DNA from: an uncultured bacterium
GTDB lineage: Bacteria > Latescibacterota > UBA2968 > UBA8231
Length of the DNA stretch: 38,438 nucleotides
Assembly (NCBI GenBank): GCA_964012055.1
Contig: CAXGRO010000003.1
Span: forward strand, 1-38,438
Direction: 5' to 3'
Shown here: piece after piece, positions 30,083 to 35,653 of the stretch
Numbering within the stretch: the first letter of the stretch is position 1
Layout: each line of letters opens with the position of its first letter
Position numbers and translations under genes: made by a program
Notes under the pieces: model-generated
Database searches by the model: none
What the model was told of the DNA's origin: nothing
What the model saw: the letters and a program-made list of their open reading frames with translations, nothing else

Positions 30083-31498
30083 ATGGCTAAGGTAAAAAAA
30101 TCGGAAAACTCCGGTAAAAAAATAAAAAGTAAAGGTAAGGTCAAAAAAGTAAAGAAGGAAAACAACGGACAAGCGGAACAAACTGCTCCAGAAAAAGAAG
30201 AAAAGTCTCGTTTTGCCAAGTCCGGAGTTTTCAGTAAACCGGGGGATTTATCTGCTCTTCTCCAGGAGTTTAAAGGGGCTAAGGTCAGTGCGGAACTCGT
30301 GCGACTACGTATGCAGACTGAATCTGTTGAGCACGGGCGCGGCAAAGCGATTGTGTGCGGTTACACCTTTCGCAAATTTAATGATGAGCCAAAGGCTGTG
30401 CTTTTTATGGCAACGCCCAGGTCTTCCAGCGGCGGCAGTTTTGAACCGACAGAACGCCTGCTTAAACCGGGTGAGCAATTACAAGTAAGTTATACATTGG
30501 AAGTGGAAGGGGGCGATCGCCCCATTTATTTTGTATCCAAGGCGTATTTTTTGCGCAAGAGCTTCTACATCGCCGAAGATCCCAACAATCCCGGAAAGCA
30601 CTGGGCTGGGCCGCGCGAAACAGCTGCGGAGAAATTTCCCAAAAACGTCATGGTTGCCGGGGATGATATTATTGAAGTACGCATTGATAATGCCACGTCT
30701 TTTCCCAATGGCCCTGGGATGTTGCAGAAGGATGTGCTAGACCGTTATCTAAGTGGCGCCGAACTCTACGTTGTGCTCGGCGGTGGTCCGTGGGCGCAGC
30801 GTAGCACTCAAGGCAATTTTTTTGAGGATATTCGTGACTCGCTGGATAAATTTTTGGCGAAGGAAAATATAAAGCTAATAGAACAGGTCAACTTGCAAAG
30901 TTTTGCCAATATGGGCGATGTAACCATTTTAACTAAGGAACGTTTGCTGGCGGATGTGAACCACGACGTAGCGCGTCCCAGCGTTATCAAAAAGCCAAAC
31001 GACAATCTGCGCGAAATTAACAACAATATTGGTTTCTTATTGCATTTTAAGATGGATGAGGAGATTAAAGAAACCATTATGCGCAATGTGCCGAATAAAG
31101 CTGGTCCAGAGGAAGATGTCTATCTACCTCTGGTACTGGAGCGGATCAGCGATTCCAAAGAGCAGTATCGCGTCACCTTTCGCCTTTTTCCCCGCGATCT
31201 GGTTGAGGAGCGTGGGCGCAAAGCCGCCATGAGCGGTGGCGGCGTAAAATTCATGCCGCCCTATGCGCTACATCCCGGGGCGGAGAACCACAATACCTAC
31301 AGCAAACTGCTAATTGCTTTGAGCCAGCGTTTTCGAGAAGATGAGAAGCCGGAAGAGGACAAACTAAAGAGCGAAAAATTAGTGGCGTCGGTGCAACAGC
31401 GCATGGCCGAGCAGAAACATAAATTTGTCGATGAAAAAGTAAAAGCCGCTTTCCAAGATCGCGTTGCCGCTAAGAAACGGAAGGAGGAAGGGGCCTAA
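30083..31498 (+). CDS. Hypothetical protein (471 aa) with Lys-rich N-terminus; probable degenerate YcgR/PilZ-like paralog of the convergent neighbour
   Basis: Long ORF filling the interval; colinear manual similarity to the 502-aa neighbour (LVRL..EH..GKA, LFMATP, LKPGE); fold assignment is inference. Confidence 0.75.
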   Translation: MAKVKKSENSGKKIKSKGKVKKVKKENNGQAEQTAPEKEEKSRFAKSGVFSKPGDLSALLQEFKGAKVSAELVRLRMQTESVEHGRGKAIVCGYTFRKFNDEPKAVLFMATPRSSSGGSFEPTERLLKPGEQLQVSYTLEVEGGDRPIYFVSKAYFLRKSFYIAEDPNNPGKHWAGPRETAAEKFPKNVMVAGDDIIEVRIDNATSFPNGPGMLQKDVLDRYLSGAELYVVLGGGPWAQRSTQGNFFEDIRDSLDKFLAKENIKLIEQVNLQSFANMGDVTILTKERLLADVNHDVARPSVIKKPNDNLREINNNIGFLLHFKMDEEIKETIMRNVPNKAGPEEDVYLPLVLERISDSKEQYRVTFRLFPRDLVEERGRKAAMSGGGVKFMPPYALHPGAENHNTYSKLLIALSQRFREDEKPEEDKLKSEKLVASVQQRMAEQKHKFVDEKVKAAFQDRVAAKKRKEEGA

Positions 31499-31503
31499 CT
31501 TTC

Positions 31504-33012
31504 TTAAGATTCAGGCTCTTTAGGTGGGGTTTCAGGAACAGCGGGTCGAATCGTATTGGTAGAAAGACTGGAATTTTCCAGGTAACCGTAAAGCTGACTC
31601 AACTGGCTGTGCACTTTCCTTAAATGTTCGTTATCTCTAATGTGGCGGCTGTAGCGCCACTGAACGAGTTCGTCGTGTTCGAGGGGTATGCCCTCAGGTT
31701 CGTAAGCAAATTGTAGACCGTGCTGCAACACGGTGCGATCCTGCGAAGTGCTCAAGCGCGTGCGCACGATCTGGGCTACGACAGTAATTTTGAAGGGCAG
31801 TTCGGGTTTGAACTGCTTGACCGCGTCGGGGAAGTGAATGTGTGGATAAAAAGTAAAATGCAGCATGGGGCCTTTTAATCTCTCAAAGGTCTTTTCCCAG
31901 TACTCTCCTTCAAATTCAACTTCGTCATCCACATTGGGCGGACATTCATCGCCCAGAATGAATTTGAGTAATTCTGGACTGCTCTCAATCAAACAACCAC
32001 AAATACTGTAGTCGACGAATTCCACTTTGAGGCCCGATTCTTCGCGCATAAATTCGAGGGGCCGTACCACCTCATTTTGAGTGCGTACTTCCATGACTTC
32101 ACAGAGCATTTGATAGTACTTACTCTGGTAATCGAAGAAGGTTAGGATTTTTTCGCCCGGGTGGAGATTGTACGGATTTTCTTCCCCTTTTCTTATACCG
32201 GCCTTAGTTGATTTTTTTAAATACAGCACATCGCGCAAGGGTTCCATTTCGATCCCTAAAACGTTGATTTCGCCCAAAAGAAGCTCGACATCTTTCTTTT
32301 TTACCATGCTGCCCGAGGTATCTTTTAATACCTTGGATACCTGTAAGGAGCGTTCGTGGGGCTGGCGTTTGAGCATGAGATCGCGGAATTGATTGATTGC
32401 ATCACGCGTAGTAAAGGGCCCTTGGTAATCTTCTTCGGCGAAGTCGTTTACCTGCATGTCGGTCAACAAAACCGGGGGGACGCCATCGGCGGGGAATTCT
32501 TTATTGGTGGAGCGCAGAAAGGCCTCAAAGGTGACGTGCGTAGTTAGGGGAATGCGCGAATCGCCGTAATTTTTAAGCGTATAGCGCATATACTGGCGCT
32601 TGTCCTCTTTTTTGAGGGCACTGATGGGAGAGAGTTTATACGCCGCTTTGGCGTGAAAATCGAGCGCCTCGGCAATTTCGGGCAGAATGCGAAAGCGCCC
32701 TATGACGCGGCAGTTGAGGCGGTGGGGGACGCGGCGATGGAAGAATTTTAGAGAGACCCTTTTGGTATTGAGGTTTTGGTCTTTGGCAATTTTGAGATTG
32801 TCAGGTGTGGTTAGATAGAGGTTTGATCCTTCACTGTAGAGTTTTTTATCGCGTCGCAAGAAAAAGGCTTTGCCCAATTCTTCGTGCTCGGTGTTTTCTT
32901 TTTCCAAATAGACCAGAGCGGAAGCGGGGCTGAGTTCGGCGAGATTATCGATTTGTTTTCTGGGGTCGAAAGTTTTTCCCTTATTTTTCTTGCGACTAAA
33001 GAAATCAAACAT
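31504..33012 (-). CDS. Hypothetical protein (502 aa), putative PilZ-domain c-di-GMP receptor with an internal domain duplication
   Basis: RQYMR (RxxxR, aa 139-143), DYSICG (DxSxxG, aa 334-339), AQIVR...HGLQF PilZ-like terminal strands; SD-like AAGGA upstream; ORF is solid, function is inferred. Confidence 0.7.
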   Translation of the reverse strand: MFDFFSRKKNKGKTFDPRKQIDNLAELSPASALVYLEKENTEHEELGKAFFLRRDKKLYSEGSNLYLTTPDNLKIAKDQNLNTKRVSLKFFHRRVPHRLNCRVIGRFRILPEIAEALDFHAKAAYKLSPISALKKEDKRQYMRYTLKNYGDSRIPLTTHVTFEAFLRSTNKEFPADGVPPVLLTDMQVNDFAEEDYQGPFTTRDAINQFRDLMLKRQPHERSLQVSKVLKDTSGSMVKKKDVELLLGEINVLGIEMEPLRDVLYLKKSTKAGIRKGEENPYNLHPGEKILTFFDYQSKYYQMLCEVMEVRTQNEVVRPLEFMREESGLKVEFVDYSICGCLIESSPELLKFILGDECPPNVDDEVEFEGEYWEKTFERLKGPMLHFTFYPHIHFPDAVKQFKPELPFKITVVAQIVRTRLSTSQDRTVLQHGLQFAYEPEGIPLEHDELVQWRYSRHIRDNEHLRKVHSQLSQLYGYLENSSLSTNTIRPAVPETPPKEPES

Positions 33013-33301: not shown

Positions 33302-35653
33302 ATGGCTACAAACGACCACGAAACCCTATCTATCCCCGAGCATTTGCCGGTATTGCCTCTGCGAAATATGGTATTATTTCCGGGAACGCCCACTCAATTA
33401 CTCGTAGGTCGCGCCGGTTCGCTGCAATTGATTCAGGATGCTTGGGAAGGAAATCGACTCATAGCTATTACTGCTCAGAAGGAAGGGGAGAAGGAAGCAC
33501 CGCAACCGGAGGATTTGTACGAGGTTGGCGTCGTGGCGGTTATCCATCGAGTGTATAAATTGCCGGATAATCATTTGCAGATTCTGGTGCGTGGCACAAA
33601 GCGCATGCGGTTGGTGGAGTACACGCAGACTTCTCCCTATCTACAGGCGCGATTGGGGGCACTGGAGGATGCTGAATTAGGCACCCAAGAAGAACAAGCC
33701 CTGGCTCAAAACTTATCGCAGCAATTCCAAAAAATGGTTACCTTGGTGCCAACACTGGATAATGAATTGCAAGTGGCCGCAATTAGTTTAGAAAAACAGC
33801 CGGCGCAACTGGCCGATTTTATCGCGGCCGGGTTGGATTTGCCCATTGCGGAAAAACAGTCACTGTTGGAAGAATTGTCGGCACGCAAGCGGCAGGAAGA
33901 GTTGACAGTTTTATTAAATCGCGAATTGTCTATTTTGGAAATGGGACACAAAATCCAAAACCAAGTCCAAGAAGAAGTGGGCCAGGTTCAGCGCGAGCAC
34001 TATCTGCGCGAACAGATGAAAGTTATTCAACAAGAACTGGGAGAAGATGGGTCCGGCGAGTTGGAGGAATTGCGCAAGCGCATCGATAAAGCCAAATTGC
34101 CCGAAGAAGTGGAGAAAGAAATTCGGCGGGAATTCGATCGTTTAACCCATATTCCTTCTAGTGCCGCCGAGTACACTGTGGTGCGCACGTATTTGGACTG
34201 GATCTTAGGCTTGCCCTGGGGAAAGGCTTCTAGGGACCGTTTGGATATAGGCAAAGCGCGCCAAGTTTTGGAAGAAGATCACGAAGGATTGGATAAGATT
34301 AAAGAGCGCATCTTGGAGCATTTAGCTGTGCGCAAACTCAAAAAGGATTCAAAGGGCCCCATCTTCTGCTTTGTTGGTCCTCCAGGAGTGGGCAAGACAT
34401 CGCTAGGAAGGTCCATTGCACGAGCTATGGGAAGAAAGTTTGCGCGCATTGCTCTAGGTGGGGTGCACGATGAAGCCGAAATACGCGGTCATCGGCGCAC
34501 CTATATCGGCGCTTTACCTGGTCGCATTATTCAAAGTTTACACAAAGTAGGGACCAATAATCCCGTCCTCATGTTGGACGAAATCGACAAAGTCGGAGCC
34601 GATTTTCGCGGCGATCCGGCCGCTGCCCTGCTGGAAGTCTTAGACCCCGAGCAGAACAGTACATTTGCCGACCATTACCTTGATCTGCCCTTTGATCTCT
34701 CCAAAGTAATGTTTATTGCCACGGCCAATCAGTTGGAAACAATTCCCCCTGTTTTATTGGATCGCATGGAGGTTATACAACTTTCAGGTTACACTGAGGA
34801 TGAAAAAGTTCGCATCGCCCGAACCCATTTATTGCCGCGCCAATTGCGCGAGCACGGCTTGCAGCGCCGCAAAGTGAAAATCGATGATGAGGTAATGAGG
34901 GGGCTGATACGTAAGTACACCCAAGAGGCCGGCTTGCGCAATCTGGAGCGAGAAATTGGACGGATTTGCCGCAAGATTGCGCGCCAGGTAGTGGAAGGAC
35001 AGAAGGGTGGTTTTGCGATCTCTCAGGACGATTTAGCGCAGTATCTGGGCGCGGAAAGAGTTCAGGTTACTGGGCGCGAGAATGTCGGCCGACCGGGGAT
35101 TGTGGCGGGTCTGGCATGGACGCCGGTGGGCGGCGAAGTCATGTTTGTCGAGGCGACCAAGATGCGCGGGAGCAAAGGGCTGACATTGACCGGCAAATTG
35201 GGGGAAGTTATGAAGGAATCCGCCCAGATTGCGCTTTCCTATGTGCGCACGCGGGCGGGCGAGTGGGGTATTGATCAAAATTTCTTCGACAAGCAGGATA
35301 TCCACGTCCACTTGCCTTCCGGCGCCGTTCCCAAAGATGGGCCTTCTGCCGGAGTGACCGTAGCTACCTCTTTGCTCTCTTTATTGACGGGCAGGTCGGT
35401 ACGTGAAGACGTGGCCATGACCGGAGAAGTAACATTAAGAGGTCGTGTCTTGTCAGTAGGTGGCATAAAGGAGAAGGTATTGGCCGCTCATCGCGCCGGC
35501 ATGAATACGGTCATTTTGCCGCGGCGCAACGGCAAAGATCTGGAAGAATTGCCCGATACCGTACGGCAGCAATTGAATTTTGTTTTAGTGGAGGATCTGG
35601 CCGAGGTCTTCGAGGCGAGTCTGGCGGAGAAATCCGTACGCCGAGCGGCGTAG
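33302..35653 (+). CDS. lon: ATP-dependent protease La (LonA)
   Basis: LPVLPLRN N-domain, Walker [10 protein letters not shown], Walker B MLDEIDK, catalytic PKDGPSAG and GGIKEK; SD AAGGAG. Confidence 0.98.

Follow-up and report, generated by a model that had tools for sequence, protein, structure and literature searches.

A 502-residue protein encoded on the minus strand (positions 31504..33012) of contig CAXGRO010000003.1 from the uncultured Latescibacterota bacterium GCA_964012055.1 is very probably a YcgR-like protein whose PilZ barrel is split and hosts a duplicated PilZN domain (the window denotes here the whole stretch of 38,438 nucleotides that was analysed). We consider it likely that this protein binds cyclic di-GMP (c-di-GMP), and the explanation that we favour, with somewhat less assurance, is that it serves as a cytoplasmic YcgR-like c-di-GMP receptor, built on a split PilZ domain with a duplicated PilZN, that has the flagellar motor as its most likely partner. 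The gene (502 codons plus stop) is monocistronic, lies on the strand opposite to all of its neighbours and begins with the residues MFDFF, a start that is kept in homologues. The genome from which the window derives encodes one copy of the split-PilZ family, as judged by profile search.

The c-di-GMP motifs are far apart and conserved

In canonical PilZ domains the motifs RxxxR and (D/N)xSxxG lie about 20-30 residues apart, often after a YcgR-type N-terminal barrel, whereas in the window protein the motifs RQYMR (aa 139-143, 32584..32598) and DYSICG (aa 334-339, 31996..32013; all features of the gene are on the minus strand) are separated by 195 residues. A preliminary description of this DNA had proposed from these strings a PilZN domain followed by a PilZ domain into which a second PilZN is inserted, and every string that it named, including AQIVR (aa 413-417) and HGLQF (aa 431-435) in the C-terminal part of the PilZ domain, was found in the translation at the residue and nucleotide position that it had given. 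DYSICG is the sole [DN]xSxxG in the protein, and RxxxR occurs four times (beginning at residues 94, 98, 102 and 139).

To judge how readily such a pair arises by chance, we generated 20,000 composition-preserving shuffles of the 502-aa protein and found [DN]xSxxG in 10.4% of them, RxxxR in 89% and RxxxR upstream of [DN]xSxxG in 6.1%, so that the motif pair alone is not significant. It is the conservation in relatives that makes the pair more than chance. Counted over 119 relatives of 340-700 aa, R139 is present in 117, R143 in 116 and G339 in 117; position 334 is D in 89, N in 19 (D or N in 108) and E in nine, and S336 is found in 107, with G in six and C in two. The only invariant columns of an 18-sequence alignment that extends down to 19% identity are R139, R143, S336, G339 and W452. 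Judged by this invariance or near-invariance across relatives, selection in the family is strongest on the two motifs, and the conservation in homologues on which the preliminary description had made its proposal depend is there.

The predicted fold places an interrupted PilZ barrel around a second PilZN-like domain

An AlphaFold2 model built with 43 homologues (mean predicted local distance difference test score (pLDDT) 83.6, predicted template modelling score (pTM) 0.70) consists of three units. Unit 1 (aa 17-129) contains a helix (17-27) and six strands (31-36, 44-51, 64-67, 85-92, 95-108 and 123-129); unit 2 comprises the RxxxR hinge, a long strand (160-172) and then a helix and six strands (aa 202-318); in unit 3 (aa 328-487), two extra helices accompany a barrel that is followed by a long C-terminal helix. 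The best ten Foldseek matches in the PDB are all PilZN-PilZ c-di-GMP receptors, namely MrkH, MotI/DgrA and VCA0042 (E 5e-6 to 6e-4), with MrkH at the top and YcgR and PP4397 further down (E ~1e-2). These receptors, YcgR (5y6f), MotI/DgrA (5vx6), PlzD/VCA0042 (2rde, 3kyg), PP4397 (3kyf) and MrkH (5kgo), are the best structural matches both for the parts and for the whole of the window protein.

Pairwise superposition with VIA-align, for which the candidates came from Foldseek's own list and the ranges report the first and last aligned residue only, assigned each unit. The N-terminal domain fits YcgR-N 5y6h (Z 8.4, root-mean-square deviation (rmsd) 3.1, 100 residues aligned, model 13-138), MrkH 5kec_A (Z 8.4, model 10-138) and 2l1t (Z 9.1), all within model residues 10-143, and we delimit it as a PilZN-like domain of the split-barrel type, with one helix and six strands, at aa 14-138 (32599..32973). 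The middle domain (aa 193-326, 32035..32436) fits the N-domain of VCA0042/PlzD in 3kyg_A (Z 9.6, rmsd 3.2, 104 aligned, model 193-324) and in 2rde_A (Z 9.2). Both PilZN-like domains also superpose on split-barrel proteins that bind flavin mononucleotide (FMN; PNPOx-like), with Z scores of 6.4-7.5 that lie below those of the PilZN matches; this is a likeness of fold only and has no counterpart in a sequence match.

Complete PilZ domains span the model from residues 135-141 to residues 470-482 while aligning just 93-122 residues (rmsd 2.5-4.1 Å). This holds for MapZ 5y4r_D (Z 9.2, 107/119 residues), Lpg0364 (Z 8.7, 93/93), Alg44 4rt0_C (Z 8.2, 107/107, chain 16-122 on model 138-475), YcgR-PilZ 5y6g (Z 8.0, 122/131, chain 112-242 on model 137-482) and 4xrn (108/108), and the alignment of BcsA-PilZ likewise ends at model 470-482. 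A PilZ beta-barrel with its C-terminal helix, without which the preliminary description would have had to be given up, is thus present in the model, with complete PilZ domains superposing at Z 8.0-9.2. Since a whole PilZ domain fits only when residues 136-172 and ~326-480 are taken together, the barrel appears to be interrupted after RxxxR and strand 1.

On these alignment ranges strand 160-172 would be strand 1 of the barrel, and R139 and R143 would come near D334, S336 and G339 in the fold. The RxxxR arginines that we take to be R17/R21 in Alg44 and R114/R118 in Escherichia coli YcgR would be in register with R139/R143. Direct-coupling analysis of strand 160-172 against the C-terminal barrel over 103 long forms (effective number of sequences (Neff) 65) returned terminal gap artefacts as its top pairs.

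The predicted PilZ domain accordingly falls into two pieces. Piece a (aa 139-172, 32497..32598) consists of RxxxR, which forms the hinge right after the first PilZN-like domain, a 16-residue loop, YTLKNYGDSRIPLTT, and strand 160-172. It is followed by a connector, STNKEFPADGVPP..., at aa 173-192 (32437..32496), parts of which are also present in the relatives described below that have no insert; T169, G177, P179 and D185 are almost invariant around it (alignment A1). Piece b (aa 327-487, 31552..32034) supplies the other barrel strands, of which strand 2 ends with DYSICG, a helical excursion (346-378) and the C-terminal helix (462-487). The remaining C-terminal tail (aa 488-502, 31507..31551) is modelled with low confidence (pLDDT <50 at 486-495) and is variable in the alignment.

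The insert is a diverged duplicate of the N-terminal domain

When we compared the N-terminal domain with the insert using profiles from 43 close homologues, hhalign matched 25 columns only (probability 11%, E 0.0026). With 103 long forms, aa 14-138 matched the insert (aa 193-326, match at ~199-326) over 108 columns with a probability of 94.7% and an E value of 6.4e-8, and four controls at the same settings (N-domain against C-terminal part, insert against C-terminal part and two reversed profiles) gave probabilities of 0.1-0.4% and E values of 0.16-0.48. The internal repeat that the preliminary description had read from four pairs of short segments is recovered in this alignment, with all four pairs in register. 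Each predicted element has a single counterpart in the other copy: helix 17-27 corresponds to 202-213, strand 31-36 to 222-229, 44-51 to 242-252, 64-67 to 263-266, 85-92 to 288-295, 95-108 to 298-309 and 123-129 to 313-318. Copy 1 stops just before RxxxR and copy 2 just before the strand that bears DYS. At the level of sequence profiles, the insert is homologous to the N-domain and represents its duplicate.

Relatives without the insert retain both motifs

Seven relatives of 357-383 aa have no residues matching ~185-325 of the window protein in our alignments and keep both motifs. RxxxR and DxSxxG are 55-89 residues apart in these short forms, as against ~173-200 in the long forms of ~470-580 aa. 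A short form is encoded in genome G110. When a profile of the seven short forms is compared with the window gene, it picks out two stretches, aa 6-194 and 319-483, and skips ~195-318 between them, which delimits the insert independently of the model. The alignment also shows that the strand following RxxxR is kept in the short forms. Taken together, the VIA-align ranges, the homology of the insert to the N-domain and the existence of insert-less relatives with both motifs bear out the architecture that the preliminary description had proposed.

In an unrooted tree of 42 of the 101 family rows, computed on non-insert columns, six short forms make up a clade (support 100/99) nested in a larger one of 12 rows (100/99), to which five long forms belong as well. 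The partner of the seventh short form is a long form (88/80), and each of the other 30 rows is long. Based on this placement of short and long forms, the sequences indicate that the insert is old in the family, and at least some of the short forms are probably secondary losses in this unrooted tree. Many distant members carry a hydrophobic N-terminal helix, and none is present in the window protein.

Splicing the two pieces improves the match to canonical PilZ profiles

A word-indexed search (clusters at 90% identity) returned 101 clusters at E<=0.001; almost all have ~500 aa, no precomputed Pfam domain is attached to any of them, and their depositors labelled them as metagenome-assembled genomes (MAGs) of Latescibacterota, 'Gemmatimonadetes' or Handelsmanbacteria. 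An exhaustive profile search found 128 matches among 1.84 billion representatives at 50% identity, and so the family is narrow. When the 101 members were scanned with Pfam at E<=1, PilZNR (30/101, best E 0.003) and PilZ (15/101, best E 2.5e-5) were the two commonest families. The ESM Atlas gave a value of 0.92 for the family itself and values below 0.9 for all leads to PilZ, PilZNR and PilZN clusters.

For a direct comparison we assembled a canonical profile from 11 PilZ domains encoded in genomes of the same class. Using hhalign, this profile matched the spliced sequence 134-176 + 326-480 with a score of 31.4 (E 2.1e-4, 108 columns), piece b alone with 25.5 (E 1.5e-3, 81 columns) and the contiguous sequence 134-480 with 26.5 (E 3.2e-3, 105 columns); it found no match in piece a alone, in the N-domain or in the insert. 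The spliced alignment sets DISxGG on DYSxGG, ARVVR on AQIVR and GMGMAF on HGLQF in register and places canonical strand 1 on ~aa 154-166. The gain from splicing over piece b alone, 27 more columns and a higher score, is modest and in the predicted direction.

These data also bear on an arrangement of three barrels in a row, in which the middle domain would include strand 160-172 and a C-terminal PilZ lacking strand 1 would receive the distant RxxxR arm. Whole YcgR-like proteins do align as two-domain units on aa 189-484 (173-195 residues, rmsd 12-17 Å), as such an arrangement would have it, and the membership of strand 160-172 is read from ranges that give end points only. However, alignments of the middle domain begin at 192-204 and never at 160, and the Alg44 PilZ domain (107/107) and two other PilZ chains (107-108 residues) align at 3.3-4.0 Å from model residues 136-138 onwards, for which a strand in the place of strand 1 is needed. 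Moreover, short forms keep the strand after RxxxR although they have no middle domain, and the PilZ profile aligns over more columns, with a higher score, once pieces a and b are joined. We therefore regard three barrels in a row as very improbable and retain a single PilZ barrel that is interrupted after its first strand.

Comparison with known PilZ proteins

The window protein resembles canonical PilZN-PilZ receptors in having a PilZN-type domain right before the RxxxR hinge and a C-terminal helix after the barrel. It differs from them in size and composition: canonical receptors comprise 210-250 aa and have no insert, whereas the window protein comprises 502 aa, has a third domain and has its PilZ domain broken at aa ~173-326. 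The Pfam models of the canonical receptors (PF07317, PF12945 and PF07238) do not reach it, and the same scan gave no match in it to DUF1577 or PF16823.

An insertion at this point of PilZ is not unprecedented, since inserts at the same point have been published for YcgR-GAZ and tPilZ proteins. YcgR-GAZ of Leptospirales (for example LIC_11920) has a PilZN domain followed by a PilZ domain in which another domain is inserted after RxxxR and the first strand (PMC11800159), the same point as predicted for the window protein. According to that article, the c-di-GMP motifs are its most conserved residues, it binds c-di-GMP with a dissociation constant (Kd) of 60-300 nM and 2:1 stoichiometry, and the R112A/R116A substitutions abolish binding (PMC11800159). 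The GAZ insert is described there as a divergent GAF-like domain (Pfam DUF1577) detected in Spirochaetota only, in contrast to the window protein, whose insert is a split-barrel PilZN-like homologue of its own N-domain and whose family occurs in Latescibacterota-type MAGs; YcgR-like proteins of Myxococcota are said in the same source to carry helical extensions in the strand 1-2 loop (PMC11800159). In the group of tPilZ, PA2989 and XCC6012, a two-helix insert of ~57-60 aa between strands 1 and 2 drives tetramerisation, more than 90 aa lie between RxxxR and the second motif, and some members bind c-di-GMP, as the two reports have it (10.1101/814665; 10.1101/2020.02.11.943704). PA2989 does so with a Kd of 2.88 uM, as cited in 10.1101/2020.02.11.943704. 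The tPilZ insert sits in a stand-alone PilZ domain, whereas that of the window protein has ~125 aa, folded as a helix and six strands, and sits in a YcgR-like multidomain protein. We did not find a PilZN-type barrel as a PilZ insert, or this family, described in the literature searched; the supplementary tables of PMC11800159, which lay outside that search, could hold members. Nor did the literature search return anything relevant on this architecture or on c-di-GMP in Latescibacteria.

Several results count against a ligand-binding split PilZ domain. As the preliminary description had anticipated for standard hidden Markov models (HMMs), the window protein has no match in Pfam or NCBIfam even at E<=10; sequence profiles of the family retrieved nothing relevant among PDB chains, and P0131 alone among the 101 members passes the PilZ gathering score (22.5 bits). 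In the spliced hhalign alignment it is aa 149-153, and not aa 139-143, that pair with the canonical RxxxR, and the ~16-residue loop between RxxxR and strand 1 is itself conserved. The RxxxR segment is a low-confidence part of the model (pLDDT <50 at 138-141), and nine of the 119 relatives carry E in place of D334, eight carry G or C in place of S336.

Some of these results are what would be expected of a degenerate PilZ-like scaffold that does not bind the ligand and makes protein-protein contacts only, like the non-binding PilZ proteins XCC6012 and type IV pilus PilZ: the missing HMM match, a motif spacing far beyond 20-30 aa, the extra loop before strand 1 and the frequency of the motif pair among the shuffled sequences. 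Against such a scaffold, four of the five columns that are invariant down to 19% identity are R139, R143, S336 and G339, with or without the insert, which points to selection on the ligand site, and the publications cited above report that proteins with an insert at the same site bind c-di-GMP, namely YcgR-GAZ (PMC11800159) and PA2989 (10.1101/2020.02.11.943704). We thus judge a degenerate scaffold very improbable and consider c-di-GMP binding by the window protein the likelier case.

Co-occurrence with FlhA hints at a flagellar output

If the ligand is bound as in canonical PilZ domains, c-di-GMP would be gripped on one side by R139 and R143 of the flexible RxxxR arm and on the other by the barrel face with D334-x-S336-x-x-G339, and this grip would fix the first PilZN domain against the barrel, as in YcgR. 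Because both connectors of the second PilZN domain would emerge beside the ligand site, we propose that binding would reposition this domain as well. Binding would in this way create a new composite surface for a partner, and the likeliest such partner would be the motor of the flagellum (its stator or rotor), as it is for YcgR and MotI.

We assessed the motor as partner by the distribution of the family in 151 genomes of the phylum (family cut-off E<=1e-10), 115 of which, including that of the window, belong to the same class. The family was detected in 43, FlhA in 59 and GGDEF in 106 of the 151 genomes; all family-positive genomes fall in this one class, and all 43 carry GGDEF. Among the 115 class genomes, 37 have the family and FlhA, six the family only, four FlhA only and 68 neither. 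When the comparison is restricted to the 78 class genomes with GGDEF, the family occurs in 37/41 FlhA-positive and in 6/37 FlhA-negative genomes. One genus has GGDEF in 20/20 genomes, in which neither FlhA nor the family was found, and in another genus the same 4/22 genomes hold the family, FlhA and GGDEF. The six FlhA-negative exceptions comprise two partial matches, three matches in genomes that are 76-84% complete, and G063, a 100% complete genome in which no FlhA was found and the family matches are only fragments with stops.

A further pointer to flagella is a short form at locus L044, whose gene shares its strand with fliG and follows it at a distance of ~105 bp; the FliG fragment at this locus is 77% identical to FliG of the window genome. 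Of the two short-form loci with upstream DNA, this is the one that follows fliG. The window genome (assembly of 6.31 Mb in 982 contigs, 86% complete) encodes six GGDEF matches, four canonical PilZ matches, a full FliG, FlhA and a MotA/PomA-MotB pair, and we found no match to Pfam PilZN or PilZNR in this 86% complete assembly. By these genes the organism possesses both c-di-GMP signalling and a flagellum.

The link to flagella is loosened by a second set of observations. Co-occurrence overstates it, because related genomes are not independent, and 18 FlhA-positive genomes of other classes do not have the family. At L076, the second of the short-form loci with upstream DNA, the neighbours are MscS-like, and fliG of the window genome is not followed by a family member. 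At 30 ortholog loci the housekeeping block leaves no room for flagellar genes within 6 kb, and no flagellar operon is found at 14 paralog loci. A complex prediction for the protein with two c-di-GMP molecules and the MotA/PomA-like protein of its genome scored 0.03 (mark 0.32), a value that we read neither way. The co-occurrence with FlhA hints at a flagellar output and is a lead, not a proof; a flagellar target is a tentative assignment to which we give slightly less than even weight.

The genomic neighbourhood appears to reflect an inherited order

The 30 ortholog loci come from other MAGs, and at every one of them the gene and its neighbours are on opposite strands. One side holds a 338-aa open reading frame (ORF), presumably rpoA as it is labelled, together with L17 and RumA (25/30), and the other side a sigma-54 response regulator (24/30), for which no specific equivalog was matched, and a ClpX-like gene. 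Lon (17/30) and the gene for a 471-aa protein (18/30) are variably present. In the window, the Lon gene (33302-35653, plus strand) is divergent from the PilZ-family gene; Lon is missing in eight ortholog loci (L012, L014, L016, L017, L021, L027, L028 and L032), where the sigma-54 response regulator is the divergent neighbour at a distance of ~190 bp. The 471-aa ORF of the window (30083-31498, plus strand), which has a lysine-rich N-terminus and no Pfam or NCBIfam match, is convergent with the PilZ-family gene, with 5 bp between the stops; this gene is absent in seven ortholog loci, in which RumA is then directly adjacent. Because the gene is on the opposite strand and because Lon and the 471-aa gene are variably missing, we read the synteny as an inherited order in a housekeeping block and not as an operon.

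It is here that a different output has to be weighed, in which the protein is a genuine split-PilZ c-di-GMP receptor acting on proteolysis, on transcription (as MrkH does) or on some other process. The gene does lie between Lon, the sigma-54 response regulator and the ClpX-like gene on one side and RumA and L17 on the other, flagellar genes are adjacent at none of the 30 ortholog and 14 paralog loci, the top Foldseek match, MrkH, is a DNA-binding PilZN-PilZ protein, paralogs are found beside single-domain response regulators or after HDOD and GAF-histidine kinase genes, and six family-positive genomes had no FlhA found. On the other hand, the strand and the variable presence of both flanking genes argue for inherited order, the family tracks FlhA much more closely than it tracks GGDEF alone, and the six exceptions are partial matches, matches in incomplete genomes or the fragments of G063. 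A non-motor output is therefore possible and, in our estimate, rather unlikely, and we keep the motor as the most likely partner of the proposed receptor.

The paralog loci place family members beside UvrC and His genes, HDOD-kinase genes or response regulators, with no consistent partner. Paralogs of ~670-717 aa (L049:5944-7956, L051:5335-7485 and L059:5515-7512; genomes G106, G114 and G070) match the profile at 86-274 and ~300-496, and the extra N-terminal part had no Pfam match; they are divergent, beside a single-domain CheY-like response regulator in 3/5 such loci. In a second paralog group (L047, L050, L053 and L057; genomes G106, G114, G140 and G070), genes for an HDOD protein, a GAF-histidine kinase and ATP-sulfurylase always precede the family member and a gene for a ~1050-aa TPR protein follows it, which may represent a signalling neighbourhood. 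A paralog copy at L035:6001-6957, on a contig of 8,426,055 bp (a length that the contig of G063 shares), breaks off at profile position ~312, right beside a Mutator-family transposase gene (L035:6994-8238); together with the stop-containing fragments of G063, this broken copy may indicate that the family is decaying in a non-flagellate genome.

Other regions of the window genome were inspected as well. Positions 1-28555 of the window contain ORFs that all lie on the plus strand, among them ones of 1276, 1363, 695 and 396 aa, and by the sizes and order of its ORFs this part looks like the rpoB-rpoC / str / S10-spc-alpha ribosomal region, with L17 as the only gene checked (PF01196). The fliG gene of the window genome (L077, G000:C392, 1908-2936, on a 5.7-kb contig) is followed by two overlapping ORFs of 251 and 535 aa and then by a gene for a LysM/HTH protein; the two ORFs had no Pfam match, and a recognisable fliH-fliI pair is not there on this 5.7-kb contig. 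The C-terminal half of a 259-aa ORF at L043:1473-2249 (G000:C80) matches aminoglycoside 6'-N-acetyltransferase models with 110.7 bits, below the 140-bit cut-off, and we class its product as a GNAT protein and do not call a resistance gene.

Implications for c-di-GMP signalling

We also considered a more elaborate switch, in which one c-di-GMP site formed by two distant PilZ halves would set the positions of two homologous PilZN domains. We regard it as a long shot. If it held true, a single receptor could engage two components of the motor, such as the stator and the rotor, or link two copies of the same component, and the insert would represent a module open to evolution that has been gained and lost by lineages, with long and short forms coexisting in one bacterial family.

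Foremost among c-di-GMP receptors are the PilZ proteins, whose censuses rest on Pfam models that are blind to this family. The duplicated PilZN barrel would be the third kind of insert in the loop between strand 1 and strand 2, and this addition supports the view that the loop is a hot spot for insertions in PilZ domains generally. With the natural pairs that have and do not have the insert, the contribution of a second PilZN domain to a YcgR-type switch can readily be tested. In the flagellated, uncultured bacteria of the Latescibacterota type, the family may be the missing equivalent of YcgR.

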